Shown here in pieces: positions 1 through 64,000 of a stretch of DNA of 64,000 nucleotides. The DNA lies in the NCBI GenBank assembly GCA_008632985.1, contig QPGO01000111.1, positions 124,001-188,000 on the forward strand. Direction: 5' to 3'. Within the stretch, counting starts at the first letter, position 1, and each line of letters begins with the position of its first letter. The stretch is from Psammoneis japonica. Taxonomy: Eukaryota. The notes below the pieces were generated by a model. That model saw nothing but the letters and a program-made list of their open reading frames with translations. It was not told where the DNA came from and ran no database searches. The position numbers and the translations under genes are program-made.

Positions 1-2127
1 TCAAGGGTTTGAAGCAGCAGCAGCAAATGCTCCAGTCTAGGTGCTGCATGCACCACAGATTCTTTGGTGGAAAGACAGAACGAACCAGTGCTTGTGCTCT
101 CTGTGCATCTAAAAAAAACTTGCTGAGCAAAGGCAGGCAAGACAAAGGCTGCATCATGCACCTTGGGCACATGATGCCTCAGCTGCCTTTGAACTTTGGC
201 GCCGGGCATGTGCACTGGTTTCTTGCACCCCTCCCATCCCTTGGTGGTGAGAACAAAACCAACTTGACCTGACAGACAAGCTGGAATGGTGCTGTGCCAG
301 CACAAGCATGCCTGAGATTGGTGTGGAGGTGGAGGATGTGGATTGAATCAAGAGATGAATCAAATTGACATGAAGTCACATGCACTCACCTTGTGCACAG
401 ACAATGCTGTCCTTGTGTGGACACCAAGACTTGTTTGGGATTCACTTGGTGACTTGAATGACGCCATCCAACACCAAGAAATTGCTGCAATGGGTGGATT
501 GAAAACACAAGTGCATCTTGAAACTTGGAGTGGCTGTGGTGCAAGACCTTTTTGACTTGCTTGCAATGCCAGCTGCACTGGAAATGTGTTCATTCTCACC
601 TCTTCTTGCTCATGAAGCCAGCCATCAATGACAAGATCCGCGCCACTGTGTCAGGATGCAAGCATGAAGAAGAAACAAAACAGCAAGGAAACAAGCTCAC
701 ATGCATCCTCAGAGCATGCTTTGACTGCCAACTCTGCTTGATGCTGACTGTGGCATGGCATCTGACAACTTGCTTTGGGCCCACGGGAGGATCAGAGCTT
801 TTGGTGCTGCACGTGGTTGTTGTTGTTGGATTGCAGTTGCTGTGTTGTTGCCTTTGACATTGGCACCTCCATGCCACAAAAGATGTGACAAACTCTTTTA
901 GAAACTTGAAACACAAGACTGGTGGGGGATGTCTCCAGCCAGCTGCTGGCTGAAAAAATCTGCCTGTCAATGCATTTGATGACAGACTCTTCCAGCACCA
1001 ATTCTGCACACAAAATTCTTCAGCCAGCAGCTGGCTGGAGACTTCCTCCAAGACAGAGGATCCAGTGATGCAGCTTTGAAGAAGCCCTGCCACATCAAAA
1101 GAAACATGGCGACTCCAAAATTCAAACAGTGAAATGTCTTTGGCCTGTTGGGGGCAAAGGTGCTGGTGGTGGAAGTCTGTGGATTCCCATGGGGATGCTC
1201 AGAGAACATCAGTGCTTTGGTGATTGCACCATGACGATGTGCGATGGAGTGTCAAAAATCAAGAAAAACAGTTGGTGCCACAGCGCTGCAAATTGCTGAG
1301 CAATTGCATGATTCACTGCCTGAAGGTCAAGTGTCATTGCCTGGAGCAACATTCTCCCTTCGTGCAGATGTCCATTCTGCATGGCACATGGCATTGAAAA
1401 TCTCATTGCAGCTGCATGAGGCACAGTCCAGGCAATTTCATCAAATGACCTCTTTGGTGCACTGTGCTGTGTGATCTACACACATCGGACATTCTTGAAT
1501 GCTGGTGCATTTTCTGCAGTCTCCACATGCATGAAGCTCAAATTTTGTGCCTGAAGGAACAACCACCCCCTTTGGGCACGCAAATCACACAATTGTTCAG
1601 CAATTTGTGTTGAGCATTTAAACACCCCACATCACAGAAAGCTGCGCACAGGCAGATGCGTGTCACACTCATTTTCATTTTTCTGGGGATTTTGCCAGTT
1701 GCCCATCTGCCCAAAATCAACCACTGTCAGACCAAGCCCTTCAGCTTCTGTGGTGCTTTTGCAATGACAAGAGCACAAATGCAAAAATTGCCAATGGCAA
1801 AACTGGCACTCATCTCTGTGATGCTCATTTTGAAGACAATCAGCTCCACACCACCAACAACCCCAATCTTGTGACTGACATGCGTCATGACATTGTGGTG
1901 AGAAATTTCATTGTGTTCAGTTGTGTTTGTGCACCACATGGTGCAGCATCATGTTTTGATGTTTTTTGGGGTGTCACCTGTCCTTGTTTTGCTCACAGTC
2001 ATTTGTTTTGTGTCATGTTCTCCAGAGCAAGGTTGATGTTCCATTGTTTGCAGCGTTGAAGCTTCGTGAGCATGATGTGGATTGAGTCATGGATGGGGGG
2101 TGTTCTCAGTGACCACGCAGTGACCCA

Positions 2128-3005
2128 GCTCAGTTTGGATTTGCCCATTTGGAGATTCCCAAAAAATGGCCAGGGTGAGGGGGAGTCACCTCACCCTTCT
2201 GGGAAAGCCCAGGAGAATTGAGGGCAATTTTGTGGGAAGGAATGCCTGAAAGGGCTCAGGGGAGGGGAACAAAAACAAACAGAGTGCAGCAATGTGCAGT
2301 GACTGCAGTCAGGTGGCTGTGCTTTTATCTCCATGACAACCAATGCATGGCACATGACGACGACAATGACCAGTGCATTGATGCATCAACACAAAGCAGC
2401 TCCTTGTGGCAGAACAAGGAAAGAAGAAACTTCACAATTGAGTCAGCCATGTTAACATTGCTCATGTGTGGTGCTGTTTTTGCCTTGTCCTTTGCTCTGG
2501 AGCCCTTGTGGTTTGCACATTTGTGACCACGCGACACAAGAAAGAACACATGATGCACTGCACTCTGCAAATGAGAGACCAACCAAAACAAAAATGAGCA
2601 ACATGCCGTTTGTGGTGTTGGCTTTTGTCAAACAACAATGAAACCAGTCAATCTCATGATCAACAGTGTAAAACACAAAATGCATGGAAGCATGACAGAT
2701 TGTGCTCAAAAAACTGGTGTGTTGACAGATTGTTGCACTTTTTGTTTTGTCACACTGTCGCAAATGCAAGCCATGCAGCATCTGCAGCAAAGTCCAAGGC
2801 AAAAGCAGAGCTGTGCATGGCCAACAATGATGTTGCGGATTGAGCAGTCTTGCTTTTTCTTCAAATTGACACATCTTGTGTGCAGAATGAAGTGGATCAT
2901 CTGGAATCACTCTGTTGTCGTGCAGCTGCAAATGCAAGCCACGAGGCTTCTGGAGCAAAGGCTGAGGCAAAAGCACAACCTCACAAGGCCAATGAAAATG
3001 TGCTC
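2128..3005 (+). repeat. Dispersed repeat (modules A+B), copy 1
   Basis: 2128-2453 aligns with 9282-9613; 2220-2580 aligns with 10228-10585; 2625-3002 aligns as reverse complement with ~10622-11010. Confidence 0.85.
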
Positions 3006-3096
3006 ATTCTTTCCTTTTACTTGATTTGTGAGGTTGTGGGTGGGTCGCGGTTTGGAGTTTCGACTTGCGTTTCCAAAATTTAATTCTGCAATCATC

Positions 3097-3830
3097 ATGC
3101 AGTGCATGCGGTGTTCTTGTTTGACGTCCAGGGCTCGACCTGTCATGTTCGGCGAAGCAATTTGATGCCCTTAAATGTGCTTGAACTGCATTTGACAAAA
3201 CAAGAGGAAACAATTGTGGTTGTTCCAGGTTGTGATTGTGGGCTGCCGGTTGACCGGGTTCAACCAGCCATTGCACCAGAAACAAAAGCAGCAGAGGAAA
3301 CCACTCACTTGCCTTGCAGTTTTGGAATTGACAAGTTGCTCGAGTCAATTGACATTGCCAAAACACAATGCCCAAACTGCCGGTTTGCAATCAAGGACAT
3401 TTTGTTGGAACCCGGCTCTTTGACACTTGCATCAGACTTCTTGGCAGGTGTCCCGGAAGTCATTGCTGTGGATGTTGGCCCCCGCACTGAGTCTTAAAAG
3501 GGTTGTGCAGTTTGATCAACGGCTGCGATTGACAATTGTCAAGAGATGGTAATTGACACAGAGGTGCAACAAGACAATGGAAGCTGTCTAGTTTGCTTTG
3601 CAGCCAATGATGTGATTTCATCTGCGCCCAGCAGACACCACCAACCGGCTTCTCAGACCGCTTCATTGAACCACAGCACCACAGCTGTGTGCTGTTTGCG
3701 CTTGTCAATGTTGTCAATTTTTCATGTGCATCAGAAACCAAAACAGTCACAAAGAGTGCTCTCTCCCCAAGTTCCCTCGCAGTTGTCAAGAGTTGGGCAA
3801 TGGGAAAATTGGCGGGTCCCAACTTGAAGA
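3097..3830 (+). pseudogene. Degraded coding remnant of unknown function
   Basis: ORF 3102-3497 reads as globular protein sequence (DKLLESIDIAKTQCPNCRFAIKDILLEPG) with Tyr absent; family not recognised. Confidence 0.3.
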
Positions 3831-4040
3831 GAAACTGGAATTGTGAAATGTGTGCTCCACGCACTCAGGTGTTGGGACAAAGATCAATCCATTGTCGTGC
3901 CCAGGGTTTTGAGAGCCACTTGTGAATCCATCAACCAATGCACGTCAGTGTCGCACAGTGCTTTCCATGACCTCAGACCTTGGGAACTTCCTCCACTTGC
4001 TGGGATTCTGGGTTGGTTTTGGGGGGGGCTGAAGCATCAA

Positions 4041-5098
4041 TCAACCAATGTCAAGGAGATGCAAGGAAAAGCATGCGCACACCTTGAGAAACAGCAGAAA
4101 GCGCATTTGCGTGCCGACACCTTCATCCTCATCATCAGAAAAGAGTTGTTCCCTGACACATCCAGCAGTCAAGAACATGGTCACAACAAAGCCGTCCCAT
4201 GTTGAAAAGCACAAATTGCCAATGGCTGTGCCTGGGCCATCTCCAAATGTCACGCAGCTGACACCAAAGCAGCACATGGAGAGAAGCAGCACAGACATGA
4301 CAGACTCGCACATGAGGTTTGACATGTCCTTGATTGTCATGATGGACACAACCACAGCAAGCACTGTTCCAATCGCACCAAGACCAATGGCATTCTTGGT
4401 CCTCCTGCACGTGTTGGTTCCGTTGTCACAAACAGACTTGCAGCACCTCGAGCTGGCCACCAAGACAATGACCGATGCGGCAAAGAGTGCCGCCCACATT
4501 GCAGTCTTTTTCGAAGCCTTGGATGCATCCGCCACACCATGATCCTTGGCGAGACTGGCTACAATGCAGAGATTGGCAACAAAGGCGCCCCATGATGAAA
4601 AGTAAAGATTGGTGTTCTCAATGAAAAATGTTGCACCTCCAACTTTGCTTTGCGCCAAACCATTGTTGGGATCCATGATGACGGGCAAGCCAGCTGCCCA
4701 GAGAACAACAAGCAAACCCACAAAGCCAATCTCGACCGCCTTGCCTTCAAAGCTGTCTTGTACCACGAAGCGCGCGACAATGGCAAAAAAGGCAAACAAC
4801 ATGGAAATGGCCATCACAGACAGGACCCACTTGTCCGATGTGCTCTTGTCATCCACGTCACTGTCTGTCTGGAACGCCGTCAGCACGACCCACAACAAAG
4901 AGAATGAGGAGGTACAGAATGGTTCAGAACAGACAAGACTTTCACAGGATTGCAAAAGATCTAGACACGACTTGTGCTTGACACCAGATTTGAAACGAGA
5001 ACATGATCACATTCACAAATCAAAACACTGCAACACACCGCAGAAAAGATGGCCAAGGCGCACCAAGACATGAATCGATTGTTGGGATCGGGGGCCAT
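4041..5098 (-). pseudogene. Multi-pass membrane protein with internally repeated NLYF(S/T)W motif, partly hypermutated
   Basis: Exon 1 5098-5039 (MAPDPNNRFMSWCALAIFSA), GT donor at 5038, exon 2 from 4889 (VVLTAFQTD...) with ~8 hydrophobic segments; the acceptor reads TGG instead of TAG; NLYFSSW versus NLCFSTW. 3' end uncertain. Confidence 0.7.
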
Positions 5099-6053
5099 GG
5101 TGATGCTTCTGTTGGTCAATACAGTAAGAGTTGTTTGATTAGGCTCTTGTTTCTATTCTTGGATACACAAAATGAGTTCTTTCTCGTTCGTGTCGTTCTT
5201 TTCGTTGTGGTTCTCATCCAGAGATTGCGTGATGGCGCCTGATGATTCGTGGATGTCAGGATTCCGTGCAGTAGAAAACGTACTGACTTCTACGTCACGC
5301 CCAAGACTTCAGAGACGTTCTCAGTTCGCTCTCAAATTGAAAATCACCCCGGCGCGAAAATAATTTCACGAACCGCGATGCTGCTAGACTAAATGATCGA
5401 GTAGGAAAAGGCAAAAGCAGACAGCAATTGTTTATTTAAACTGTCCAAGTAGTAACCGGGCGGGCATCCAGTCTACCACCGTCCCGACCGTAGCAGAGTC
5501 TTGGAGGATACTTGAAGTTCTCAATGTGAATTTGGTAGAAGGTCGTCCTCCACGACTCGTCAGCGCTTTGACCGTCAAGGCGTGACATCTTGCGGTCAAA
5601 ACAACAGACACAATGGCAAAAGAAAACAAAGCATTCATTCTTGACATGTTTGCATAAAATGGAAGCGCTTCATCATCCGCTTTCCTCCCGTCCAACTCGC
5701 ACACTAGCTCTTGTCCTCGGATCAGAACTTTAGCCATCTCGAGCCGACTTTGATCAAGTGCTTGTAACTCTTAGTAGGGTCTTCCGAGTGACTCTCTGGC
5801 TCTACAGCCGCCTTTGAATCAGACAAGAGCAACCCTAATTCCTTGTTCAAACAAAAGTAGTGATATGGTTTTCTGTTAATAAAGATATCATGCATGCAAC
5901 ATACTCGTACTATAATATGTAATCCTGTTTCGTTCGAATGTAATGTAGAGAGTTCACCAGTTCTGCGGGAATAGATCCAATCATCTCATCTCTTTTTGGA
6001 GTGCATTCTTTTTGACTTGGAATCCAAACTGAACAATAACGAATATCTGCTTC

Positions 6054-7324: not shown

Positions 7325-7401
7325 TTGGGTAGGTAAATACCGCGGCCTGCAGCCTAGGGTTAGTGTACTGTATTATTATTTTTGGACTCATACAGTAGAA
7401 A

Positions 7402-9281: not shown

Positions 9282-11010
9282 CTTAGTTTGGTTTTACCCA
9301 TTTGGGGATTCCCCAAAATGGCCAGGGTGAGGGGGAGTTACCTCACCCGTTTGGGGGAGTCCCGGGAAATGAGGGCAATTTTGCGGGAAGGAATGCCTGA
9401 AAGGGCTCAGGGGAGGGGAACAAAAACGAATGGAGTGCGGCAATGTGCAGCAAACACAGCCAGACAGGTGTGCTTTTATTGCCATGATGACCAAGCTAGC
9501 GAGCGAGCAATGTGACATGACGCACGACAATGATTGCATTGACACATCGACACAAAGCACCCCCTTCTGGCAGAGTGAGGAAAGAAGAAACTTCGCCATT
9601 AAATCTGCCATGTTGAGCTGTGATTCAAGATCAAAGCAAGTGGCTGGGTCACCACGCCATTCAGCAGTCTTTGCAAGAAACAACTTTGGGGTTGCAAAAC
9701 CCTGCCAAACCAATGCCACAATCATTGAAAGTGCAGCCAGTGTTGATTGAGAGGTGAACTCATGTTGAAAATTGTTGGACATGGAAGGCAGCATCGTGCC
9801 CCCACTTTGTGCACCTGCAAATCCCCAGCAAACAAAAATGAGCTTGACCCATGCTCTGCTGGTGCCAGCGCTGTGCATGGTTGAGGGAATGGATGGATGG
9901 AGCAAACAAAATTTTTTGTGTGCATGTCTTCCACAAAGAAAAAGGTCTGCTGCACTGCACGCATGAAACTGGCAGTCCAAACAAACCACATAAAACAAAA
10001 TGCAGAGAACAGCCTGCCAATGAGCATGTGCAGAAGCAAAACTGGAAAACGCCACAGTTGTGCATTGTTGAAAACAATGGGCTGCAAATGACACCCAGCA
10101 ACCCACCAGGCACCGTTTCAGGAGCACCAGAACATGGCATTGTCAGTTCATTCCTGAATCTGTGCCATGAGTGGGAGGGCTCAATGGCAACAACAACAGC
10201 AAAAGACACAGTTGCCACTCTAGGAAATGAGGGCAATTGGAATGCCTGAAAGGGCTCAGGGGACGGGGACAAAAACAAATGGAGTGCAGCAACATGCAGT
10301 GATTGCTTGCAGTCAGGTGGTTGTGCTTTCATCCCTGAGACAACTGATTGATGCATGACGCACGACAATGACAATGACCAATGCATCAACACATCAACAC
10401 AAAGCAGCTCCTTGTGGCAGAGCAAGGAAAGAAGAAACTTTATGATTGAATCAGCCATGTTGACGTTGCTCATGTGTGGTTCTTTTTTTGCCACATCCTT
10501 TGCTCTAGAGCCCTTGTGGTTTGCATTCTTGACCACGCGACACAAGAAAGAACACGTGAAACACTGCATTCTGCAAATGAGACAGATCAAAGGAAAGAAT
10601 GAGCATGACCACTCAAATGCACCACATTTTCATTGGCCTTGTGAGGTTGTGCTTTTGTCTCAGCCTTTGCTCTAGAAGCCTCATGGCTTGCATTTGCAGC
10701 TGCATGACAACAGAGTGATTCCAAATGATCCACTTCATTCTGCACACAAGATGTGTCAATTTGAAGAAAAAGCAAGACTGCTCAATTTGCAACATCATTG
10801 TTGGCCATGCACAGCTCTGCTTTTGCATTGGACTTTGCTGCAGATGCGCATGGCTTGCATTTGTGACAGCACCAAAAAACAACAAGTGCAACAATCTGTC
10901 AACACACCAGTTTTCTGAGCACAATCTGTCATGCTTCCATGCATTTTGTGTTTTACATTGTTGACTGCAATGTTGTTCACAAGATTGACTGGTGTCATTG
11001 TTGTTTGACA
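9282..11010 (+). repeat. Patchwork of repeat modules A, C, A', inverted B
   Basis: Direct alignment to 2128-3005 and to 24703-25349. Confidence 0.85.
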
Positions 11011-12416
11011 AAAGCCATCATAAATGGGGTGTGAACGCTCCATGGCATGTTGCCCATTCTTGTTGTGGTCAGTCAATTGTTGATTTGCATGTCTGGTGTG
11101 GCTCTGCATGTGCCGGCACACAAATGGAGCTTGCAGAAATGCACAAGAGGGGGAGCATGGGGAATTGCCAATGCATTGTTTTTTGTTCATGCATTTGGTG
11201 CACATGTGTGACAAAGCATCGTTTGTGCTTGTTCCCTGGGAACCCTTTTCCATGGAAAAAGTGTGGCAAAAGGTGGCAATCTTGGGGAATTTGGGGCAAC
11301 CCCATGGCAAAACCAAACCAAGCAACCCAGCAGGAAGTGGGGACCACACGTCGATGGTGCACATGTGACAGCTTGACTTTGGGCTCAACAAAATCACCTT
11401 GAATGGCTTTTGTGTGACAATTGAGGGCTGTTGTTGTGTGTCTGAATCATTTGTTTGCTTGTGCTTGCAGTTGAGCATGATCAATCTCACCATGTCTCAT
11501 CTCATTGCAATCTTGGGCATGCCAGAACCATGTTGAGAGGGTTGTTCATGACAGCTCTGCAAGGTGGAACTTTTCAAATCACATGGAATAATTTTCGCAC
11601 AACAGCTGTGGTCTGTTGTGGTGTGCTTGAACTTTGCCTGTCCTTGCATTTCAGGGTGATGAGTCTTGCTTCTCATCATTGTTTGGCGCACTGCATGCTG
11701 GAACCACGTTGTGTTGATTGCACATGACAGCTTGACTTTGATCTCAACAAAAACAGTTGGAACAACTTTTGTGTGAACTGTTTTTCCATGCATCATTTGG
11801 CAACGTGTCCTTGTGGTCCAGCATGATTTGGGTCATGCCCTTGTGGAAGCATCTGCCAGAAGAGCATCAGAGGCCGCAATGTGGTGTTGTTCACTTTCCT
11901 TTGGAAATGTCAGCACATTTAATTTGACAAAAGTGCGCTGTTGTTAGATGAATTTCATTTTTGTTTTGATGGTCAATTTACATTCATTGTTGCCGTTTTA
12001 TGTTGGCAGTTGTTGCCATTTTATTTTGCTTTTAAGTTGCCAAAGAATTTCAATGAGCCCTTTGTTGTTGAACAATGCTTTTTGTTTTGATTAATTTGTC
12101 ACATGTTTGTGGAAACATTGACTTTGACAGTGCTTTTCAACAGCTTCACCGCAGCCTTGCATCACCACAGACAATGGCATTTCTTTCTCGCCCCAGTCGG
12201 CCACGCAATTGCCTCTAGGAACGCCAGCTCATTGTCACCTGCACGCTCCAGTTGTCCAGTCAATGGGTCCCTGCCTCCATTTTGGTGCCTTTTCTACATG
12301 TGCAGTTCTCTGCCCATTTCATGACAGCACACCCTCTCCCCAAAATGCTTTTGACGAGAGGGTGCACTGTCATGAATCCTGTGCATTCTGTGTGAATCGG
12401 CAACTGACTGTTGGCC

Positions 12417-17570: not shown

Positions 17571-17573
17571 TTT

Positions 17574-21008: not shown

Positions 21009-21265
21009 ATGTGTGTTCGAATGGCATCACCGGCTCAGTTCGTGAAAAGTGAAACAGTTCAGGCGGCAAGGAAGAAAAACACGACACGAATTGGCACGAA
21101 AACATTGGTGCATTGTGTTCTTCCCATCAATGAAAACATTGATGGGTGAGAATGAATCGAGTGTGTTGGGATCATTGACAACTTTGAGCATGAACAACTG
21201 ATTGCAAAGGTTGTTTTTCCATGGAAAGGAGAAAATAAGTTGTGACGTGATGCGCCGCAATGCCA

Positions 21266-27815: not shown

Positions 27816-27857
27816 CACAATATTATTAAATTAGAAAGAAAGCTACTTTTATGTAGT

Positions 27858-42352: not shown

Positions 42353-42358
42353 TAGCAA

Positions 42359-49830: not shown

Positions 49831-50358
49831 TTGCTTGCCAGCCCTTGAGCACAGCAAAATGAGGTCAAGAGCTGCAGAGCTGCTGTGCACAGCTGGGCAG
49901 CCAAAACTCATTGAAAAGGAGCATGTTGACTTCTGATGCAGTTGAGCCACACTCATCCTGAGCTGGACTTCCTTCACAGAAGCTGGGTGTGCTGTCATGC
50001 AACCCTCTCCATCCATTGTTGCATGTGGTGTTAGCAGCTGCTGCTGTTTGGGCTGGAGTTTGAGCAGGACAACCACCTGCTCTTTTGTTTGTTGAAGGAG
50101 TGCCTTTTCTGGTGTCGTGCAGAAAAAGGTTTGGCCCCAGCATCAAGAACGACGGACGATCGACTGGCGGGGGCGCGAGTAAGTCGCGCGCGGTCTCCGC
50201 TCGCTCGAGGTTCGAGGTCGACCGATAGATGCGATGCGTCATGCGTCAATCATAGGACAATATCATCATGATGCTTGTGTTGTTGCTGTTGCTTTCTCAA
50301 GCGCGGACGTTCATTGCTCATGTTACCGGTGTTATTCAAACTAGAGACAACGAGAAAC

Positions 50359-51545
50359 ATGACTCATACATTGGTTGCAGTTTTAATTGTCGTTTTTTGT
50401 ATTCTCCATGATGCTCTTTCCTTTCTTGTCGTCTCGCCGCCCCATAAACCGCTCTCGACATCATGCTCGCTTCTGTTCATGGGAAAGGGATTCAACCGCG
50501 GAAACAAGCAGGCAGACTTGATGAAGAAAATGAAGCAAGCCAAACAACAAAAACAGGGCTTACCGGCGGAGAAAAAGAAGGAATTGTCCGAGGAAGAAAT
50601 CAAGCGACGAAACGATCGATTGAGATTTGACGAGCTGCTCGAGAGTGCCAAGAGTGCGAGTGCCTATTCGGACGATGGGTATTTGAGTCAGGTAAGATGA
50701 TGCTGATCATGTTTTTGTAGTTTAGAAACGTTATTTTGTTTGTCTTATACAGGTCTTTCGTTTGATTCTTCAGGCGCAAGAGGAAGAAGAAATCACAGCG
50801 GCTCGTAAGTTACAACATTTGTGTGTAGTTCAGGTGGTCCGCACATCCATGATGATTCTGGCATTGTCGCTCCCTCACTCTCACTTCCTATATTCTAATA
50901 CTACAGGTTCTGGTGTAGAACGGCTGTTTGAAGGCGATCCAATGCCCGATATTGCCATTTTCAAAGAGCTGATTGCGTCAGACACTGGGCTACCGCTGCA
51001 AAATGCTCAACAAAAACTAGATCGGAATGGCTACCTTGTCCTCTTGACGGATCCTCGACCAAAATCCTACGAGTTTCGACAACTGATTCAACAAGTTTGT
51101 GTCGATCTCTCTCAAGAAATTGTGAGGGAAAAGCTAATTATTGTCAATGCCGATACTCCAGCAGAAAACAAAAGGTAAGAGAAAAAGAATGCAAAGTCGT
51201 TTGCTTGCAACGAGAGAGTAAAGGCTGACGCTCTCGTCTTGCACTTGTGTTACCCAGATGGGCGAAAAAGAGCGGCTTGTCAAAAGCATCTCTATTTTCT
51301 GACGTTGATATGGCATTTATGAAGGAATACTCTGCTCTTGGTGACAAGGTAAGTTTGTCGTCGTGAAGTGTATGGGGATGAGTTTTGAGAAACTCAGTGT
51401 GGCTAATCCATTCATCTCTCTCTAGCGCTGGGCTGTTTGTATGTTTATCATTGCCAAGGGACGTGTTCAAAAGATTGCTCGTGAAGTTAATCCTATTGTA
51501 GCGTCTCGTGTGATTCAGAATGCTATCCAGACACTTGACATTTAG
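50359..51545 (+). CDS. Plastid-targeted hypothetical protein, multi-exon, possibly thioredoxin/AhpC-like C-terminus
   Basis: Signal peptide ending ALS-F then a transit peptide; GT-AG introns (e.g. caggtaag at ~50692, aggtaag at ~51175 and ~51348); stop TAG at 51543-51545. Confidence 0.7.
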
Positions 51546-51747
51546 ATTGACGAGAAGATACGGCGGGCGAAAATAGGTGAAACCGACAGCAAGTCAAGAA
51601 AACTGCGACAATCTTGAAGTTTGTCCTACAGTACCCATAGATTGCCACTCCTACAAGCAAAACGTAACTACAAAACACTTTAAGATCAATCTAGAGACAC
51701 ATCCTACATAACTATCTTCTCGATTAAACCTATTCCCAAGCTGTAGT

Positions 51748-53309
51748 CTACTCGTAAACCTTGGTCACGATACCGGTTCCAACAGTCCGACCACCTTCAC
51801 GCATATTGAATCGCAATCCTGCTTCAAGTGGAATGGGAGCAAGGAGTTCGACATCCAACGTTGTGTTGTCGCCTGGCATTACCATTTCCGTTCCCTCCTT
51901 GAGCACCAAGTCACCGGTAATGTCGGCAGTCCTGAAGAAGAATTGAGGACGGTAGTGGGAGAAAAAGGGAGTATGGCGCCCACCTTCATCCTGTGAAAGA
52001 GCGTACAACTCGGCTTCAAACTTCTTTCCCGTCGAGACGGTGCCCGGAGCGCACAAGACTTGTCCGCGCTTGACATCTTCCTTCTTCAAACCACGAAGCA
52101 ACGCACCAATGTTGTCACCTGCCATACCATAGTCCAAGAGCTTTTTAAACATCTCTACACCAGTGCATGTCGTCTTGGTATCCATATCCAAACCAACCAC
52201 TTCCAAATCATCGCCCACTTCAATCTTTCCTTGCTCGACACGCCCCGTCACGACGGTACCGCGACCCGCAATCGAAAAGACATCCTCCACAGGCATCAAA
52301 AAGGGCTTGTCCAAATCACGTACCGGTTCCGGAATATTCTCGTCCACAGCCGCCATGAGTTCCAACACCTTGTCGTGACCCAACTCTGGATTGTTACCCT
52401 CCGCAGCAGCCAGGGCGGAACCACGGATAATGGGAGTGTTATCTCCGTCGAATTCATAAAAGTCAAGCAACTCACGAACCTCCATCTCCACCAATTCCAA
52501 AAGCTCTTCGTCATCGACCATGTCACACTTGTTCAAAAAGACGACAAGGTTGGGGATACCAACCTGCTTGGCTAGCAAAATGTGCTCACGCGTCTGGGGC
52601 ATGGGACCATCCGTCGCGGCCACAACGAGAATACCACCGTCCATCTGAGCAGCGCCTGTAATCATGTTTTTGACATAATCCGCGTGACCCGGACTGATAG
52701 AAGAACAATAAGATCAATATAATTGAGAATCAATGATATGAGGTTTCGTTCTCTCAGTCAATATAATCAAAACACAAAACTCACCAATCAATGTGTCCGT
52801 AGTGACGATTTTCAGTTTCGTATTCAATGTGAGATGTATTGATTGTAATTTTACGAGCCTTTTCTTCGGGTGCCTTGTCAATATCCTCGTACGTCATGCT
52901 TTCGGACCAACCCTTTTCGGCCAACACCTTGGTAATAGCTTGTGTGAGAGTCGTCTTGCCGTGATCAACATGCCCAATCGTACCGATATTCACATGGGGT
53001 TTGGTACGTTCATAGGCGTCGGTAGCAAAGGCTCTCTTGAGAACATACAAGCCACTGTTTCTTGTAGTAGTGCTGATGCGGCTTACTCGTGGCAAGACAC
53101 GCGTCAGGGAAACTGCGGACTGGATTCAACAAACCACAACAAAATGTGAGAGGACGCCACTTTGTGGTCAGTCGTTCAATCCAGCTACAAAACATTCAAT
53201 TCTTCACAAGAAAAAAAACAATCAATTCAAGATAAAACAACTTTACATCACAACATCACATATATAGTGGAAGTCAGATAAGAGCGTCGCCACAACGACT
53301 TACCATCAT
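51748..53309 (-). CDS. TUFM: Mitochondrial elongation factor Tu
   Basis: [29 protein letters not shown]; exons 53309-53304 (ATGATG), 53119-52785, 52693-51748; Arg/Ser-rich presequence. Confidence 0.96.
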
Positions 53310-53341
53310 GGTTGCTGACTAATTTAGGCTTTGGAGAACCG

Positions 53342-54132
53342 CAGGATCCAAGCTAATGGAGTGGCGTACTTTCAAAAATTCGGTGCGCATACCTGATCTA
53401 CACAAAATATACGTACGTAAAAATGTACTACAAAATTCGTAGAGATGTTTATTTGAATTCACTTCACACACAAACATCACGGCAACGACGCCGCGACATC
53501 GGCAATGGACGCACACAACAACGACAGCGGACTGGGAGGTTATGATGCACCGAGACAACAACTGATATGATAAGAAATGAGATATCAATGTCAAATGACA
53601 ATGATCGAGTTGTTTTGGGAGCTGGTTGAGCCATTGGTGACGAAGGGTTTTTGGCACGTACAACTTGGTACTGAAATCACGTAGAGGTTTTGGCCGCGGT
53701 GGGACTGTTGTTTTTCACTTTTTTTGGGGTGTATTTTGTGTTTTCTCGGTCGATCGCATTGATGAAGCACTGAAGTGAGCACGCGACAACAGATTTTGAC
53801 GAAAAGTTGGATTTTCATTCATNAGGATTAGCACGGGGTTTTTAACACGGTGAAGCACGGGGGGACGATTTTTTCACCAGATTTGCAAGATCCTGTATCC
53901 CATCCAATTCGCATGCGTAATATTAGTGGATTGATGTATTTTTTATACGCAAGAAGCGCAATAACGTCGATATACCCGACATGATAGACTTCCCGTGCTG
54001 TTGTCGTAATGAAGTGAAATCTTGTTGTGTTCGGTGCGTAGAGTCTAGTACTATTTGTCCGTATGTAGACGAGTACTGCGCACCGCACTTTTGGAAAGTA
54101 CGCCACTCCATGGTCCGACCAGGATCCGCCAC
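53342..54132. mobile_element. Possible MITE / non-autonomous element with imperfect terminal inverted repeats
   Basis: ggatcc...atggagtggcgtactttc.aaaa.t.cggtgcgca at ~53344-53389 recurs inverted at ~54077-54128; an N at 53823 marks an assembly uncertainty. Confidence 0.45.
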
Positions 54133-54306
54133 GTAGATTGCTAGAAGTCACTTCAAAGATTCCTGATTCTCAGTTCCGTCAATTGCATTCCGCTGAGTCA
54201 GAACATCCGGGTTATCCAATTTGTCGCTGACGTCGCAGGTCGCAGTTTTGGCGGGAAATCGAAAACGCTTTCTCACTCATTTTTTTCAACCTTGATACTA
54301 CCCACC

Positions 54307-54830
54307 ATGAAGCTTTTCAACTCCTCTTGTTGCCCGTTGCGGCATCGTATGCCTTTGTGGCTCCAAACAGCAAGCTCGGAGTAAACCCCAAGACCGTCTT
54401 GTCCGCTCGCCCTCCGGAATTCAACGCCGACACGCAATTGTGGGAATACACGGATGAATCTCAATATCCCGACCAAGGCTACGACATTATTGGACCGTCT
54501 TGAGGCATGGTCCTCTCCCGTTTTTCAACCGTCTCTTAGACAACCAGAGTTATGAACAAAGTGTTTTGAAGTACATGGCTGTCGAAAAAGTGGATCGTCT
54601 CACGGCACAGGGCAACATGGATGCCTTTTTGGCAAACCCCAACGATTGGCTCTATTATCGTCAGCAGGAAAAGATTACCGGAAAGCTCCCGATTATACCG
54701 TTCTTAATGAGAAGCAAGCTGCGCTTTCCGTCTTTTGGGGAGTGAGCATTACATACCTCATTGCTGTGTTTGGGTATTCCATGGCCACCCAAACGTCGTT
54801 CAATGACAATGTTTTCCCTTTTTAAGAGAG
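54307..54830 (+). CDS. Small plastid-targeted hypothetical protein, several apparent frameshifts
   Basis: Presequence ...VAASYA-FVAP; core YEQSVLKYMAVEKVDRLTAQGNMDAFLANPNDW; frames are discontinuous; end approximate. Confidence 0.55.
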
Positions 54831-55192
54831 CGGTTGTGCTGATAGCAATTGGTTGTACGATGATTGAAATCAATGGCAAGTTGAGAAACAAATATCCTTA
54901 ATGTGCCGGCACCATTGAAGACACAAGCACAATTGACTTACACGTGTGGAGAGCGAATTCGCTTGTGGTGCCATAGAAAGACGCAGCAACTAGCATTTCT
55001 CAAAATACATAGAATATCTGTTGCGACAGCTGAGACTACCGTAGCTTTATGCTTTAAACTTTCTGTCTTGTCGGCTTATGCTGTCCACAAAAGTCTTTCA
55101 GTTTAGCGTACACAAGAAAATCAGCAACGCAATGCGCTGAGAGCAAAGCCAAAAAATCCATGAACAAAAACACGCTCTTGTCGACATCAATG

Positions 55193-56046
55193 CTATATTG
55201 GATGCGGTGATGCCTTCTCATACTCCGACAGGATACCAACAAAGCAAATTACCAGGCATGGGTCCATTCCAGGGGCAATGTGAACGGTAAACGATGGCCC
55301 CGCAAGGGGGTTTTCTCGCTTTCGCTCCGTGACAAATGCCACGAAACTACCATCCGTTCTTTTAAACGACATGGGGGAAACTGAGTCTTGAGTGCCATGA
55401 TCCCACCCTTGGGAAGATGGGGCTCCGAACATAGGTCTCCACGTATTCTCCGCCGCCGTCCTTGTGTGAGAACATTTCAACTTTGAGCACCTTGCTATGG
55501 AAGTTATCCCCACCCACCTTGGCCCAGCTAAAAAAGCAATGCCCTTTGCAACGGTCCTAGACGGTAAAGGCTTTTGTCCCTTGTGAAATGGTTTTGTGGC
55601 GCAGATTTGATAGTGTTCGTGTGCTCCAAGCTTCCCCCCTTCTTTGAAGACCTTCGCAAGCACCTTGCCGTTTCCGTCTTCGAGATATAGATGGGATTGA
55701 AATCGCTTTCCTTTGAGACACACTCCCCAGCATATGGTTTTCCGTCTTCCAAGTTGGTGACAACAAATGAATCGGCTTTAGTGGACCCGGGGTTGTGACA
55801 CCCATTGAAACTGCAATGTCAATGTTTTCCCGCTTGTTTCAATGGAACCGCGTCTGCCATTGTGAATCATTATTTGAAAAAGAAAAAAGCGGACGACATG
55901 TTTGTGGGTGAGTATTTCCCCATTGAAATAAGTGGGTCGAGAAGCCAATAAAGGTGGCACGTACCAGTGCCATCTCCGAGATTCGGTTCGCCAGCAGCGC
56001 GTTTGATCAGGTGGCGGAACTCATTGGCGGAGGGAACAGACGTCAT
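55193..56046 (-). CDS. LURP-one / tubby-C-terminal-like protein, with intron and apparent frameshifts
   Basis: C-terminal FTVHIAPGMDPCLVICFVGIL motif; ATG at 56046; probable intron ~55963-55865. Confidence 0.55.
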
Positions 56047-57649
56047 GCTTTTCGACGTAGAATTTTGTTATTTTAGTACTCAAAATGGAGAAAAGGATCA
56101 AGGAACAAGAATAGACAAGCTATGCATTCGATTTTAGGGCAACACTCGCCGGTGGGTCGCCGTGAAGTTGATTGATTGGTTGAATGAAAAGAGAGAGAGA
56201 AATACGATGCATGCGATGCATGTGGCGCCGTAAATCTTTCTATGAGACCCGGAAGTTAAAGTTCATGGGCATTCCGGGTCATCTACCGGCACACTTCCAC
56301 AACATTTTGAGCAACTCGCCTCTGCGATTCCCGCTTTTCAACCAATCGATCAATCCTGTAAATTGCAGGACTCTTAGAGCTGCTGCTTTGTGGCGAGCTT
56401 AGTCATGCCTGGGTGTCCTTTCTGGACAGGGTTCAGAGCATCGTGCTACAAAACCAAGCACAAAATGGCGCCTGCACAGTGTGCTGCAAGCGGGGTTCAA
56501 TCAGCATCTTCTTCATCATGCAGCTGCTGGCTGTTGTCAGTTAAAGTCAGCACATCTCTGCCTCTGTGGTTTGTACCCTGTCAGTCAGCCAGTGCCCCAC
56601 CCCCTGCTCTGGGGCCGGGATCCAATTTAAAGCAAATCAAGCACACAAAGAGATGGGGCGCGGTTTTTGCAGCCTCGGTGCATGTGCAGTGCAGGTGTGT
56701 GACACCTTCTGACAATGGTTGTTGTGTGGCACAGGAGATCTGGCAACTGTTCTTACAGTGGTGACAAGAGCTGTTCCATTTTGGACTTGGCAACAAAAAA
56801 TCTGAGAACTTGTTTTGCGATTGCTCTGCACCTGTTTTTTGTGCTTTTTGTTCCGGTGGCCCACTCATTTGACATCTGCCCAAAACATGCAAATGCAAGT
56901 GACAAACCAACTGAGCACTTTCCAAGCCATTGTTGACAACAAGACAATGTCCGTTGAGGCAGCCCTGGGAGTTGCAGCTGCCTCCTCATCTTCAGCGGCT
57001 TTCACATTCATCTTCTTTGTGTGTTCTTCCTCATCCTCTGCATGCTCATGTGCTGTTGTTTCTTCCTTGGATGCTCTGGGCTCATCACCTTCTCTTCTTG
57101 TGGCTGCTGCTCAAATTGTTGCAGGCTGCTGCATGTTTGTCCTCAACATTGCTTTCATCAGCTGAGCCAATTGTCTTGTCCAAACCTGGTGCACATTGTC
57201 AGACATTGTATCATCCTCTTCTGAAGAGCTCATCATTGGAGTGAATGCAACATTGACTTTTCCGCAAAAACAATGAATTGTGTTGAATTTGCAGCCCACA
57301 TGTGGGTCACAAAAATTTGCAATGAGGGATTTTGCAGTCCAGCCATTTGCTGCCAAACCAAGACTTGCACAGAGGTGTGCAGAAAATGCACTGAGCTCCT
57401 CAATTTTCAATTTTTGGGTGCTCTGGTTGCAATCAAAAAAGTGCCAAAAGACCAAAGCAATTAAACACCAGTGCTTTTGTGGAAAATGGCGCAACACATG
57501 ACAGATCTTTGGGAAAAGAAACCAGGTTAAAATTGATGGCTACACTGAACTCATCGAGTGGAACACAAAGCACACTTGGTGGCCCAAAAAAGCACAGGTG
57601 TCATCCACTCGACCGGCGACTCAGCAAAGGTCAGAGGTGAGATGCCTTT

Positions 57650-59750
57650 GCCACTCTTGCTCTTTCGATGTGTTGAGCTCCCGCCACCACAACTTTTTCA
57701 ACCCCTTGGTCACAATTGCTCAACAAATGTGGAGAGAGGCAACTGTCCATCATTCATCAAAAGACTCAAAATGAGCCGCAAGTGGTCGTTCGGTGGTGAA
57801 GTCATCAACAACAAGTCCCGGTGATGACCAAAGTTTGCCGGGGCAAACCAAGACATCTTCAACAAGATGGCAGACTTTGTGTTTCATGACAACAGCTTTT
57901 GCTCCAAGCAGCTGGCCAGTCAACATCAAGCACCGTTTCTTTGTCCAATGCAGAGGGGGGAAACAAGCCTGCTCATGCTGGCCAATGTGATGCACAACAA
58001 GAACGACAGTCAAGAGTCAAAGGTTGCATTCCAGCCTCATGATGCCAAATCAATGTTCACATTGAGCATTGACTTTCTGGAAGTGATGGCTGGGAACAAT
58101 GCACAGGCTGTGGGGATGGTGAAGTGAGAGAATGCGTGAAAAACAGCATCCATGATTCTTTTTTGACCTTGAGTCCAGAACTCCAACAACACTGCAAGGA
58201 ACCCACCATGATGGATGCCACTTGTGACAAGCACATCGTGGCGGCAGCAAAAGCAGTGTCAGCACATGGTCTTTTGAAAGAAGTCAATGAGAGACAATTG
58301 TTTTGGGTGCTCGTTGATGAGTGCGACAAGCCTGCACGTGAGTTGCTGCTTGGTTTTGTTGGTGAGGGGGATGACTCTCATTGGCAAGGGGCAAAAGCAG
58401 ACCTCAAGAACTGCCAAGGCTTTTTTGCTTCATGCAAGATCATTGCTGCTGGTGGAATTAAGAAGAAAAACCAAGGGTTGCAACAAGCAAAAGTTTGGGT
58501 CACTGGTGTGTTCCCTGTTGCCTTGAAACTTGTCAGCGACTTCAGCCCTGAAGTGTTCACATTTTGCCCAATCTTTGCTGGTGCCATTGGTCCACTTGAT
58601 GAAGATGTTGATCACATGCTCAATGCTGTTGACAGGTGCTTTCCGTTTTGGGCTGGTGGTCAAGAGAAGGTGCGTGTGCGGGCTGCCATTGGCAAATTGG
58701 CAAATCGGCAAATCGTCTCTACTTTGTTTTGGAAACTCCACTCTGCCACACAAGGGTGGTCAACAGCACAATGAATGCCCTTCTTGCAAATCAAAGCCAA
58801 AGCGCATGGTTGCAAAATCTTTCTGTGCTTCCTGTTGGGGCTGAGTTTCAGCACATGCCATCTGTGGCATGTGATGTCATCTGAAAGCAGAGTGCCCTCC
58901 ATGGCATTGCCCATGACTTGAGTTCAAACAAGGAGATTGTTTCAGAGCTCAAGGAAACCCTTGACCTTGGCGACGTTCCACACACAATCCCATGTGCCCG
59001 GCGGATTATCTCACTCTGCTTGTCCACCTTGGAATGGCGTCCATGCACCAACTTTGTGGCCAAATGGTCTTTCAGGCAACAAACACGTGCTTCCACATTC
59101 CCTTTTTCACGCGTTTGTTGGAAAACTGTCTTCAACCTCTGTTTGGTGCAGAATCGTTGAATGCACTGCACCTGATCGGGGCAACGCAAATCGGAGATTT
59201 TATGCAAACACTGCCAAAGTCGGGCAGCATGTCATCTTCAGTCCAATGGGCAGAGAAGGCAAGAAGCAATGGAGTGTTGGAGCTTCAGTTTCAAGGATTT
59301 TTGATTGGAGAACTGGCAAATGTGCTCTGGTCTGAAGATGCAGCAACAACTCAAGAGGATGTCATGAACTCTGGCCTGGCCGCACAGACGCGAGAGTTGC
59401 AGGAAAAGGGACAGCTCTTCTTTTGGAGTTGAAACAGAAGCCAATGACTGCCAGTCCAGCAAGTGCAGAAATGACAAACTGTCACCAACAACTCCACAAG
59501 CACATGGAAGAGCTGGTCCAAAGCAAACACATGAATCCTGTGCTGGTGCGGAGACAAGTGGCTGGCTTTGTTGTCGAGATGTGCAACAATGGAAAGTCAT
59601 TCAAGGTCAAGCGCACAACCCACACCAATGCTTGACATTGTCACCGATTGGTTCAGTGCAATTAATTCATTCACAGTTGTCCAGGACTTGGCAACCAGGA
59701 CAAGTGGCCAACTCTCCTGGCTCAATTGAGCAATGCAATTGTGTGAGTCA
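57650..59750 (+). pseudogene. AAA-ATPase-like (PF09820-type) gene remnant, copy 1
   Basis: Degenerate Walker A FLCPMQRGETSLL (cf. RPRRxGKS), Walker B VLVDECDKP (cf. DEYDxP), KVWVTGV (cf. FxTGV). Confidence 0.65.
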
Positions 59751-61924
59751 CACTTCACCACTCTGGCGCGACTCTTTTATTTTGTCCAGCTAAAAAAAGC
59801 TGCCAGCGGCAGGCATTGATGCACACACAGCAGCCTGTTTGCAAGTGAATGGCCGCCATCCACAACACAACCAAATGGCATGTCACTGTTTGAGAGTCAT
59901 TGCAACAGATGGCACCCCCATGCCATGCGGTGTGATCGTTGACATGTGAGGTCTGTTGCGACAGCTTGGTTTGGTTTGTTGTTGTGTTGGGGTTGTTTTT
60001 CACATCTTGCTCACCTCCTGCTCTCTTGTGTTGGCATTTCTTGCATCACAACAGGTGTGACCGACTGCCGCCAACAGAATCGGCGTTGTCATTTTCATCA
60101 TTGGCAGGTTGGAATCTGGTGGAATGTCAAACGATGGGCAAGCATGCACCACAATGCCATTGTCATGTTGCGTCAGATTGTCCTTTTTCAAATTTCACAT
60201 TCCCTCAGCCAACCCTTGCTTTTCGTGCTGCTGTTTTCTGCTTTCAATGCAAAGTTGCGGTTGTTGATGGCATGAGCATGATGGGTGGGACAATGGCAAG
60301 CATGTCTCTGTGCCTGCCTTAATTTCCCTCAATGCAGCCACAAAGGATGCTGATTTGGAGTCCTGGGTGGCTCCTGCAGCTGCCAATTTACCTCCAGCAC
60401 CGTCAGAAATTTGTGGCTGTTTCACCCATCGCTTCTTGTGCTGATCAGATCAAAGAAAACAAGGCAAGCTTCCACTGGTTGCATTTGCATCCATTTGCAG
60501 GAGACTGGCACTTTGCCAATTGTCCACTGAAAACCATTTTCTCCTTGGTCATTCACGCAAGTTCATCGGCCTCATATTTTCCTGCATCGCGATCCTCACC
60601 ACAGAGTTCTTGACGAGGAAGTCGCAGAGATGTCCAAGTGGACAAGGCTCTCCCAGCCAAAGAGACAAAAATGTTGAGCAGAAGACTGCCAATGCATTTT
60701 GAGGGTGCTGCTGTCAATGCACATCCAAACCATGTGTTGAGCCAAACAAACTGTGACAACCACCAGTGTGGTTGGTGACTCACTTGTCTGTCACATGTTG
60801 TGCATGCACTGCTCTCTGCTCTGGCTTAGATTTGACAGCACTGGCCTCATTGCAGAAGGCACTGCTGTGTCTGTTGCCATTCCATCTGGCTTGCACTGCA
60901 AAAAATCTGTTGTGTGACAATGCACATTGCAACAGACAACAACACAACTTGCTTTGACGCCGAAACAATGCTCAGCTGCTGGCTGCATCTTTTTTGCCCC
61001 CCATCCACAATCAAAGCCTCTCTCAAACACAGTGCCTGTTTCCAAATGTTCTTTCTGAACAAATGAAGAGTGCTTGACATCTGCGTGCATCATCCTCAGA
61101 ACTCCCATGCAGCATCAGCACTGGTGTCTGAATCGGAGCGACAGATGGTGCTGCAACACCGGCGACGCCATCAGCGGCACTGTCAATGAACTCTGATGCA
61201 ATGAATGAGTGCAAAGACTGAAAATGATGGGTTGGCATGCAATGCAAAGCATTGCATGCAGGGAGCAGCACACAACAATGAATGCAAGAGACAACAATGT
61301 GCCCTGCTCACACTTTGATGTGGAAAAAAGCCTGTGTGATCTGCTTTGCCACTTGCCCCGCACAAACAATTCAAAGCAAGAGTTTCTCAAACAACACCAA
61401 CTCTAAATGCTTTTCCAAATGAAGAGCAATGTTTCATCAGCATGTGTCATCTGCAACAATGGTGAAGACAACACTGTTGTGGCTCTTGGCATCACCGACC
61501 TGTGGTGTGTCATGGCAAAAAAATCTGCGTGCATCCAACAAGTGAAAAAAATCCACATTGACCAGTTCTGGCAAACAAAGAGTTAACATTGATGATGGGA
61601 ATCTGGGTCATCTGCAGCATCAACATTTCCAATTTTGAACATCTCGCTTCTACAAAACCGTGTTTCACCCATCAGTCACATCCGGGTTTTTCCCTGCACA
61701 ATGTGTGCTGTGAACTGTGCAGGAGATGATTTTCATGTGCGGCTTTGACTGAGCAAGAGTCAGTCAGACAGAGAGCAGATTGAAATGCAGCAGCAATTTG
61801 GAAGCAACAAGCCACCGGAGTGTGGATGTGAACAACAAACAAACAGCAGGAACAGAACAAATGCCCATTGACAACACCACTTGACCAACTCAGCAACAGC
61901 AGCAGAGGTCACACCTTGTGACAC

Positions 61925-63940
61925 CTTTGCCACTCTTGCTCTTTGACATGTTGAGCTCCTGCCACCACAACTCTTTTGACCCCTTGGCCTCAATTGCTTG
62001 CCAAATGTTGCAGAAGAGGCGACAGTCCATCACTCATCAAAAAATGCAAAATGACCAACAAGCTGACACAATCTGGCAGTCATGATGTCTTCAAGAGCAA
62101 GTCACAGCATGGCCAAAGTTCGCTTTGCCAACCAAGATGCCTTTGATGAGATGGCAGACTTTGTGTTTTGTGACAACAGCTTTTGCTTGGAGCAGCTTGC
62201 CAGTCAACATCAAGTGCTGTTTCTTTGCCTAGGCAGAGGGGGGAAACAAGCCCACTTGCTCTGGCCAATGTGGCGCACAGCAAGAATGACAGCCAAGAGC
62301 CAAAGGTTGCATTTCAGCCTCATGATGCCAAACCAATTTGCATCAAGCATTGACTTTCTGGAAGTGACGGCTGGGAACAATGCACAGTTGTGGGTGGCAA
62401 AGTGAGAGAATGCGTGAAAAATGGCGTCCATGATTTTTTGACCTTGAGTCCAGAACTCGTCCAACAACACTGCAAGGAACCTGCCAAGATGGACGCTGCT
62501 TGCAACAAGCACATCATGGCAGCAGCAAAAGCATTGTCAACATGTGGTCTTTTGAAAGAAGTCAATGAGAAACAATCTTTTTTGGTGCTCTCATTGATGA
62601 GTGCAACAAGCCTGTGCATGAGCTGCTGCTTGATTTCATTGGTGAGGGGGGCAACTCTTGTTGGCAAGGGGCAAAAGCAGACCTCAAGAACCAACAAGCT
62701 CTTCTTTTTTGTGCAACATTGTTGCTGCCAGAGGCTTTAAAAAAAAAGGAAAAAAACAGGGGTTGCAACAAGCAAAAGTTTGGGTCACTGGTGTGCTCCC
62801 CATTGCTTTGAAATGCGCCAGTGATTTCAACCCTGAACTGCTCATGTTTCAGTTGATCTTTGCCACTGCCATCAGCCCACTGGATGAAGATGTCAATTGT
62901 GTGCTGAATGCTGTTGATGGGTGCTTTCCATTTTGGGATGGAGGCCAAGAGAAAGCATGTGTGCCGGCTGCCATTGGCGAATTGGCGAGTTGTCTCTGCT
63001 TTGTTTTGGAAACTCCACTCTGCCAGCACACAAGGGTGGTCAACAGCATGACAAATGCCCTTCTTGCAGATCAAAGCAGAAGTGCGTCGTTGCAAATGCT
63101 GTTCATGCTTCTTGTTGAGACTGAGGCCCCCAGCACATGCCATCTGCAGTGTGTGATGTCATGCAAAAGCAGAGTGCCCTTCATGACATTGCCCATGACT
63201 TGAGTTTAAACAAGCAGATTGTTTGAGAGCTCATGGAAACCCTTGACCTTGGCAACATTCCACACAATCCCATTCACCTGGCAGATTGTCTCACTCTGCT
63301 TGTCCACCTTAAAACAGCATCTGTGCGCCAACTTTGTAGCCAGGTGGTCTTCCAGGCAACAAGCACGCACTTGCTTTCGCACTCCCTTTTTCATGTGACT
63401 TTTGGAAAACTCTCTTCAAGAACCTCTGTTTTGTGCAGAATTGTTGAGTGCACTCCACCTGGTATGCAACACACAAATCAGAGATTTCATGCAAACGCTG
63501 CTCAAGTTGGGCATGTCTCTTTGGTCTGATGGGAAGAGATGGCAAGAAGAAGCAACAGAACACTGGAGCTTAGTTTTGAGGATTTTTGATTGGAGAACTG
63601 GCAAATTTGCTCTGGTCTGAAGATGCAGCAATGACTTGAGAGAATGTTGTGAACTCTGGCCATGCCAATGTGAGAGTTGCAGGAAAAGGGACAGTTCTTC
63701 TTTTGGATTTGAAACAAAAGCCGATGACTGCTGCACCGGTGTGGAGACAATTGGCTGACTTTGTTGTCATGATGTGCAACAATGGAAAGTCGTTCAAGGT
63801 CAAGTCGTGACCTGTGGCAATGCTTGACACATTGTCGCCGACTGGTTCAGTGCAATTAATTTCATTCACAGTTGTCCAGAACTCAGAGGCCAGGACAACA
63901 CAGTTGACTTCCTTTCACTTGAGCAATGCAACTGCAATTG
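61925..63940 (+). pseudogene. AAA-ATPase-like gene remnant, copy 2 (direct repeat of copy 1)
   Basis: Collinear with 57650-59750 over ~2 kb; more degraded. Confidence 0.65.
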
Positions 63941-64000
63941 TGATTTTTCATTGTTGTTTTGATGCGCAACACTGCTCTCATGCAACTCTTTTTTTTTCAG

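Follow-up and report, generated by a model that had tools for sequence, protein, structure and literature searches.

A graded, strand-resolved flanking-base rule for TpA loss in mobile DNA of the diatom Psammoneis japonica

Hypermutation of TpA has been described in the alga Bigelowiella natans, where it strikes integrated DNA of nucleocytoplasmic large DNA viruses (NCLDV) as well as of virophages (Mettrop et al., bioRxiv 10.64898/2026.01.13.699255). According to the same preprint, the process is ongoing, with a rate raised about 1000-fold in mutation-accumulation lines, and an adenine deaminase is proposed, none being shown in its main text. This is the one preprint to have quantified an A>G defence across a genome. 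Here we describe TpA (TA) loss in the diatom Psammoneis japonica, in a window of 64,000 nucleotides (the whole stretch analysed, positions 124,001 to 188,000 of contig QPGO01000111.1) and in transposon copies from the genome contigs (91 Mb in 597 contigs). The features of the Bigelowiella type recur here: changes are almost exclusively transitions, they are restricted to TpA and yield both products, TG and CA, and mobile DNA is hit while genes are spared. No report of such a process in diatoms was found in the literature searched, subscription journals being mostly outside its scope.

Surviving TpA sites and the flanking-base rule

Segmentation of the window by a two-state hidden Markov model (HMM) separates four TA-poor domains, 37,622 bp with 159 TA, from normal DNA, 26,378 bp with 988 TA; the density is about 4 TA/kb in the domains against 37 TA/kb in gene blocks. 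The observed/expected ratio (O/E) of TpA is 0.4-0.75 in gene blocks and mostly 0.02-0.2, with high TG/CA, in the TA-poor domains, which are built of mobile DNA: a 12.7-kb Plavaka-type element and several small repeats. The NTAN spectra of the two compartments differ sharply (chi2 158, df 9, p 2e-29), as the original prediction had anticipated. YTAR (Y, pyrimidine; R, purine) makes up 81 of the 159 survivors against 162 of the 988 TA in normal DNA, and RTAY, which had been described as nearly gone, is indeed reduced to 10/159 against 311/988. The proposed bias of survivors towards CTAG and TTA/TAA contexts is real, these contexts accounting for 132/159 (83%) against 423/988 (43%), with a different emphasis: TTAA leads with 40 survivors, and CTAG contributes only 16. 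These 16 are all the CTAG of the four domains and are exactly those listed at the outset, 15 at the exact position and one at 62229 instead of 62228. A T stands 5' of CTAG on one strand in 14 of the 16, compared to 29/48 in normal DNA, and TCTAGA accounts for 7/16 compared to 5/48: a first sign that bases beyond NTAN matter.

The age of survivors could be evaluated for the 85 of 159 covered by at least 3 sister copies. Seventy-nine are old, being shared with sister copies or facing both TG and CA there, and six are private, including the CTAG at 9496 and 12215, absent from sister copies; survivors as new TA or target-site duplications are thus ruled out. The CTAG at 10505 and 10672 lie in two copies of one local repeat. 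Some sites are kept in nearly all copies (16919 in 13/13, 19877 in 15/15, 20109 in 14/15), mostly beside T or A runs. A role of CTAG survivors as Helitron ends is unsupported, the tested sites lying inside the Plavaka element.

Normal DNA is a biased yardstick, being coding, depleted by stop-codon avoidance and carrying clustered CTAG (12 at 42140-42344; a further group of 4 lies at 7149-7186). Retention was therefore re-normalised to the pre-mutation TA of the 12.7-kb element, the main context test within the window with 407 TA sites: its window copy retains 21/86 YTAR, 22/220 mixed and 3/101 RTAY sites (p 1.6e-5). That the preference is not absolute had been argued from TTAG at 9284 reading TCAG at 2131. 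The reading is correct, and the 29 copies of this repeat of about 440 bp, a family used for this site only, show CA in 12, TG in 10, TA in 5, CG in 1 and a gap in 1, as expected of a graded preference.

TA sites were then pooled from seven transposon families, six of copia type (62 loci) and the Plavaka element, aligned in three segments of 13, 8 and 9 copies. The resulting 1,109 sites and 11,557 states were fitted by a competing-risk model (100 site bootstraps) in which each copy has its own exposure and undetectable sites are corrected for. Eight of 70 copia loci, falling in no family of at least three, were left out, together with partial or diverged Plavaka copies (L047-L063), an interrupted locus (L221) and near-identical twins (L098, L127, L125). 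Sites of two miniature inverted-repeat transposable elements (MITEs), 7 and 14 in number, were kept outside the likelihood fit and used in the MITE A>G counts. Since copies share history, which inflates likelihood ratios, we rely on site counts and bootstraps.

In the six mutated families (717 sites), retention is 0.50 for CTAA/TTAG, 0.51 for CTAG and 0.50 for TTAA, down to 0.14 for ATAC and 0.04 for ATAT. At the site level it rises from 0.126 in RTAY (291 sites) through 0.259 in mixed contexts (501) to 0.46 in YTAR (167; p 1e-21). Uniform survival across contexts, which would have spoken against the original prediction, is thus not observed, and the bias holds when retained and mutated TA are compared within transposon alignments. 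Since a TA step has one adenine per strand, the product, TG or CA, tells which strand was hit. At YTAY/RTAR sites, the strand with a pyrimidine 3' of the A wins at 353 sites, loses at 108 and ties at 112: product polarity shows that the pyrimidine must stand directly 3' of the A that changes. YTAR sites survive because the adenines of both strands are slow. The two favoured motifs originally proposed, TAY and RTA, reflect a real preference, yet they are one rule seen from two strands, and positions -3, -2, +2 and +3 count too.

The fit gives a pyrimidine/purine rate ratio of 2.6 at +1 (bootstrap 2.4-3.0). With CpG terms included, relative rates at +1 are A 0.53, C 1.74, G 0.64 and T 1.68; at the other positions they include C 1.37 and A 0.63 at +2, G 1.30 and T 0.74 at +3, A 1.48 and T 0.70 at -2, A 1.38 and T 0.53 at -3, and G 1.22 and T 0.85 at -4. 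A model on the -2 base alone (logL -8759; null -8829) is far worse than one on +1 (-8347). Rates learned from copia are predictive for the Plavaka element, with a rho of -0.53 for its retention and of 0.48 for its polarity. The same +1 bias is found in a young, barely hit and hence unsaturated copia family (59/1980 vs 15/1155, p 0.002), and the counts in the non-coding MITEs agree, with 151/276 for TAC, 274/570 for TAT, 52/153 for TAG and 93/317 for TAA. TAT and TAC have equal rates, and TACG is no hot spot: of 8 alignments with heavy mutation, 7 retain TACG/CGTA more often than the remaining TAC sites. The rule, its polarity and its transfer between families we regard as almost certain; the extended, graded preference, with YTAR spared and RTAY lost, is a usable fingerprint.

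Neighbouring CpG dinucleotides add to the rule. With a CpG directly 5' of the T (CG-TA*, A* being the changing adenine) the rate drops to 0.37 (0.27-0.52), and none of the 56 terms tried had a larger effect; for TA*CG it is 0.64 (0.49-0.79), and for each CpG at a distance of 4-8 bases 0.83 (0.76-0.93). Within the fit, neither farther CpG (1.06) nor the GpC control (1.08, 0.97-1.23) has an effect. Raw counts go in the same direction: at CGTAY, 271 mutations fall on that strand and 485 on the other, compared to 786 and 910 at DGTAY (D, not C). In Phaeodactylum, transposons are silenced via DNMT5 methylation (PMC9998398), which makes shielding by 5-methylcytosine a plausible cause, though, by analogy, one we advance only tentatively.

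Specificity, mode of action and candidate mechanisms

When unmutated copies of the two MITEs serve as reference, A>G changes per strand amount to 570/1316 at TA, which is saturated, compared to 75/1859 at AA, 85/1459 at CA and 42/1277 at GA. Among 11 young copia copies, 98-99% alike, the corresponding figures are 74/3135, 16/5016, 6/5082 and 13/5390; TA loss thus outpaces CpG decay, as C>T at CpG is found in 23/3773. Overall, AA>AG is about 100-fold rarer than TA>TG. Sites with at least 85% TA/TG/CA show 3,992 TG and 3,499 CA, that is 7,491 transitions, against 41 states with a lone A>T or A>C change; unfiltered, the ratios are 570 to 36 in MITEs and 74 to 2 in young copia. Such transversions are at background, 36/1316 against 0.016-0.037 at other adenines in MITEs, and 2/3135 in young copia.

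Other adenines change to G at about 1% or less in young copia and in the Plavaka family. In the latter, the +1 preference is again visible: AAY is hit at 74/602 sites against 22/808 for AAR, and GAY at 42/556 against 22/678 for GAR, with 33 and 31 transversions before Y and R, respectively. The commonest contexts there are AAT and AAC (14.8 and 9.9 per 1000). Heavily hit alignments have RAY/RAR ratios of 1.3-7.4, and the barely hit family one of 1.4 (8 vs 6). This suggests a leak of about 1% of the same process, though ordinary context bias may also account for it.

Hits do not cluster by strand within copies of the Plavaka family (2-1000 bases, 7 distance bins, z -2.1 to 1.2), which speaks against processive single-strand action there. 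Nor is there a bias to the element's own strand: the TG share lies within 0.06 of the model in 9/9 alignments, so that editing tied to transcription or reverse transcription was rejected. The pattern is compatible with isolated hits scattered over the two strands of integrated DNA. Young copia copies carry 1-32 TA hits, which suggest recent activity of the mutator. In the copy with 32 (L164, G000:C388:8598-12281), 29 hits fall within the final third of the alignment, its sisters having 1-11; this looks like spread from a neighbouring domain. Many TA-poor copia copies retain open frames of 1,400-2,200 aa. By the genetic code, erasing TpA should not be able to create new stop codons: TA>TG/CA removes stops and tyrosine codons, so that any defence would work by missense.

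These observations are best explained, with a probability of roughly 0.6 for the account as a whole, by a mutator that would act on transposon DNA after insertion and convert TpA adenines to G singly, on whichever strand. With two target adenines in every TA step, survival needs both to be slow. A +1 pyrimidine raises the rate per adenine about 2.6-fold; C at +2 and A at -2/-3 raise it too, and T at -3/-2, A at +1/+2 and a CpG directly 5' of the T lower it. What remains is YTAR, above all TTAA and TCTAGA in T/A runs, slow on both strands. Adenine would be deaminated to hypoxanthine in chromosomal DNA and fixed as G at replication, by a TadA/ADAT-fold enzyme recruited to silent, CpG-methylated transposon chromatin. 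As the chemistry, deamination seems considerably likelier than an error of Pol iota or a prior modification, a lesion on A and one on the paired T leaving the same trace in sequence. For the more specific picture, distributive deamination by a TadA/ADAT-fold enzyme in methylated transposon chromatin with fixation as G, we would give slightly better than even odds.

Several points weigh against this account. No mutator enzyme was identified: the deaminase-fold genes of the genome (Table 1) look ordinary by sequence reading. The aligned copies are not fully independent, with a median product agreement of 0.63 and 0.84 for one pair of nearby inverted Plavaka copies (L041/L042, G000:C123), where late duplication or gene conversion is a suggested reading, and copia copies may be under selection. 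The CpG term is a choice among many, 24 offsets and 32 dinucleotide terms having been screened; TC (0.57) and CC (1.57) at the CpG position also deviate after CG is fitted. CpG-decayed copies keep TA slightly less, in the direction expected of shielding, but not significantly so (43 vs 49.6, z -1.76). TadA-fold enzymes need a single-stranded or looped substrate, and no hairpin-loop preference was found with a simple stem score (fold 0.93-1.34). Finally, where Tad2/3 edits in fungi, the +1 base is preferably a purine, A or G (PMC11156358), contrary to the rule found here.

The main rival, which we consider unlikely, is a Pol iota-type polymerase that would fill very short gaps in transposon chromatin, placing G opposite template T at TA, the flanks reflecting a polymerase or glycosylase preference. 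The genome has five Y-family loci, of which one best matches Pol iota (L237) and two Pol eta, and strand clusters would not be expected from patches of a single base. Opposite T, the human enzyme in Mn2+ inserts dGTP with a 5.3-fold advantage over dATP (PMC3031609). The gene is thus present, but A>T and A>C do not exceed background at TA (41 vs 7,491), and a trigger lesion would still be required. Pol iota makes other errors at T too, and the need for a 5' T, of about 100-fold, exceeds what is, to our knowledge, known of any polymerase. No report of a TA hot spot of Pol iota was found in the literature searched.

Slightly less probable still is a modification preceding the change, for instance a methyltransferase-like protein methylating the A of TAY, in analogy with RID in the repeat-induced point mutation (RIP) of fungi, the modified base being then deaminated or miscopied. 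A footprint from -4 to +3 and the sensitivity to CpG suit a protein binding double-stranded DNA, as does the lack of any hairpin or single-strand signature. ApT, however, the context of eukaryotic N6-methyladenine, is not erased (O/E 0.91 overall), TAC and TAT have the same rate, and no candidate gene was found, none having been sought.

Patch synthesis by Pol eta as in somatic hypermutation, with its WA motif, is largely refuted and very improbable. Two Pol eta-like genes are present, and AAY is the most frequent non-TA context of A>G in the Plavaka family. The excess of AA>AG that had been derived from this mechanism was nonetheless sought in vain in MITEs (75/1859 vs 570/1316), in young copia, where AA (16/5016) stays close to GA and far below TA, and where TA loss reaches 82-88%, A>G at AA being about 1% per copy there; strand-coordinated clusters are equally absent. 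An artefact is the least probable. Survivors would then be TA that ordinary mutation, or slippage within T/A runs, had newly made, or would stem from target-site duplication or from comparison with coding DNA. The six private survivors (two of them CTAG) and the inverted ends of short MITEs, which keep TA regardless of context (GTAG 0.42, GTAA 0.24 retained), point that way, but this reading is refuted by the 79 old sites and by a bias that persists in seven families when each element is compared with its own TA, and from which the mutating strand can be predicted.

Features of the window and candidate loci

Coordinates are collected in Table 1. Of the 19 open reading frames (ORFs), 16 were tested against Pfam, all those in TA-poor DNA among them, and none gave a match.

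Table 1. Features of the window (positions 1 to 64,000) and candidate loci elsewhere in the genome
Feature	Position or locus	Strand	Details
TA-poor domain 1	1..5119	none	HMM; 19 TA; repeat copy and membrane-protein ORF inside
Repeat copy in domain 1	~2130-2560		sister of the 9283..9614 copy; sister match at 2129-2453 reads TCAG
Repeat copy at domain edge	9283..9614	+	terminal TTAG kept (TA at 9284)
TA-poor domain 2	9340..27041	none	HMM; 96 TA
12.7-kb Plavaka-type DNA element	11865..24565	none	short imperfect inverted ends; 13 copies compared, 87-94%
ORF with Plavaka transposase-like features	19131..20552	-	atlas score 0.95, 183 shared features; hmmscan: no Pfam hit
Normal gene block, control	27042..42750	none	TRAPPC8, two subtilases; 572 TA
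TA-poor domain 3	42751..50179	none	HMM; 17 TA
MITE-like element	43019..43579	+	0 TA; unmutated sister copies, used as references, 34-43 TA
Second small repeat	43819..44179	+	1 TA; unmutated sister copies 17-18 TA
Normal gene block, control	50180..56628	none	EF-Tu; 259 TA
TA-poor domain 4	56629..64000	none	HMM; 27 TA; local 1.8-kb duplication, 80% identity
TadA-like protein	L141		signal-like N-terminus; label from sequence reading
ADAT2-like exon	L145		label from sequence reading
dCMP deaminase	L142/L143		label from sequence reading
Deaminase-oxygenase fusion	L144		label from sequence reading
Two PF02137 (adenosine-deaminase) loci	one on C40; second L233/L234 (G000:C79)		PF02137
Pol iota-like gene	L237 (G000:C22:251128-254793)		best solved-structure matches: Pol iota in every case (E 2e-26), against 2e-14 for the next family

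The ORF at 4041-5006 (minus strand), inside domain 1, encodes a diatom-type membrane protein and has four TA left. Its nearest atlas clusters belong to Bacillariophyta, a lead and not a placement, and it appears to be a host-type gene copy hit by the mutator. The two related subtilase genes at 34029-41827, in opposite orientation, with Pro/Thr-rich repeats and about 70-73% alike, are spared.

In domain 3, three small repeats adjoin one another (43019-43579, 43579-43816 and 43819-44179); in sister copies of the first, TA persists longer at the inverted ends than in the middle. A tandem 306-bp duplication at 47840-48448 (99.7% identity) has no TA, and is therefore younger than the mutation of the domain. 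No unmutated copy of the 1.8-kb duplication of domain 4 was found.

Comparison with known systems

Like RIP of ascomycetes, the process is a repeat-directed, dinucleotide-specific and context-graded mutation of chromosomal DNA; its direction is opposite, as RIP creates TpA from CpA/TpG and the diatom process erases it. RIP further relies on RID and on the pairing between repeats. C>T at CpA, the signature of RIP, is found in 47/1478 in the MITEs, which is background, and TpA is lost, not gained.

Editing of mRNA by fungal Tad2/Tad3-Ame1 and by ADAR shares the preference for a 5' U and an A read as G. ADAR2 prefers UAG (PMC10661471). Both act on RNA and favour a purine at +1, which here is the slow class (A 0.53 and G 0.64 against C 1.74 and T 1.68).

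Bacterial TadA has UACG as its natural best target, and a link of the fingerprint to this target had been proposed. It does not stand: TAT equals TAC, TA*CG is slowed to 0.64, and TACG/CGTA is retained more. T at -1 with a pyrimidine at +1, a TadA-like fingerprint, is found all the same, so that the match is to the YAY/TAT bias of engineered TadA rather than to the tRNA target. Among adenine base editors (ABE), ABE7.10 has a 5'YAY bias and ABE8e a TAT off-target preference (PMC11983105), and ABE8e-YA favours YAY over YAR (PMC12528748). These enzymes share the preference for 5' T and 3' pyrimidine and a clean A>G outcome; unlike the process described here, where 5' T is preferred about 100-fold with no hairpin signal, they are laboratory enzymes acting on single-stranded DNA and accept 5' C well. 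The strand-resolved rate table opens a direct enzyme test, as candidates can be assayed for the predicted motif, e.g. on a randomised NNNTANNN library. If the account given above is true, a natural deaminase edits adenine in chromosomal DNA, which would be relevant to base-editor design. The rule also makes it possible to date copies from their exposure, in place of raw divergence.

The closest system remains that of Bigelowiella, which likewise shows A:T>G:C transitions at TpA, giving TpG or CpA, locally and on foreign or mobile DNA. It belongs to a different supergroup branch, and the diatom process differs in that many transposon classes are nearly saturated and the edges are sharp. No flank analysis was found in the main text of the preprint; flanks may appear in its Fig. 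2B motif panel and in Table S2, which covers the 230 TpA mutations of the lines. The same flanks can be checked among Bigelowiella mutations, and would tell whether the two algae share one system. Somewhat short of even odds, we envisage a dedicated natural DNA adenine deaminase system of diatoms, an A>G counterpart of RIP, which would act distributively on both strands of transposon chromatin at the motif (A/not T)-(A)-T-A*-Y-(C), with a leak of about 1% onto other AY adenines and hindrance by methylated CpG, and which may also act in Bigelowiella. The process itself matches that of the Bigelowiella preprint, and what the diatom adds to this known though unexplained type of mutator is a fingerprint that is graded and resolved by strand.

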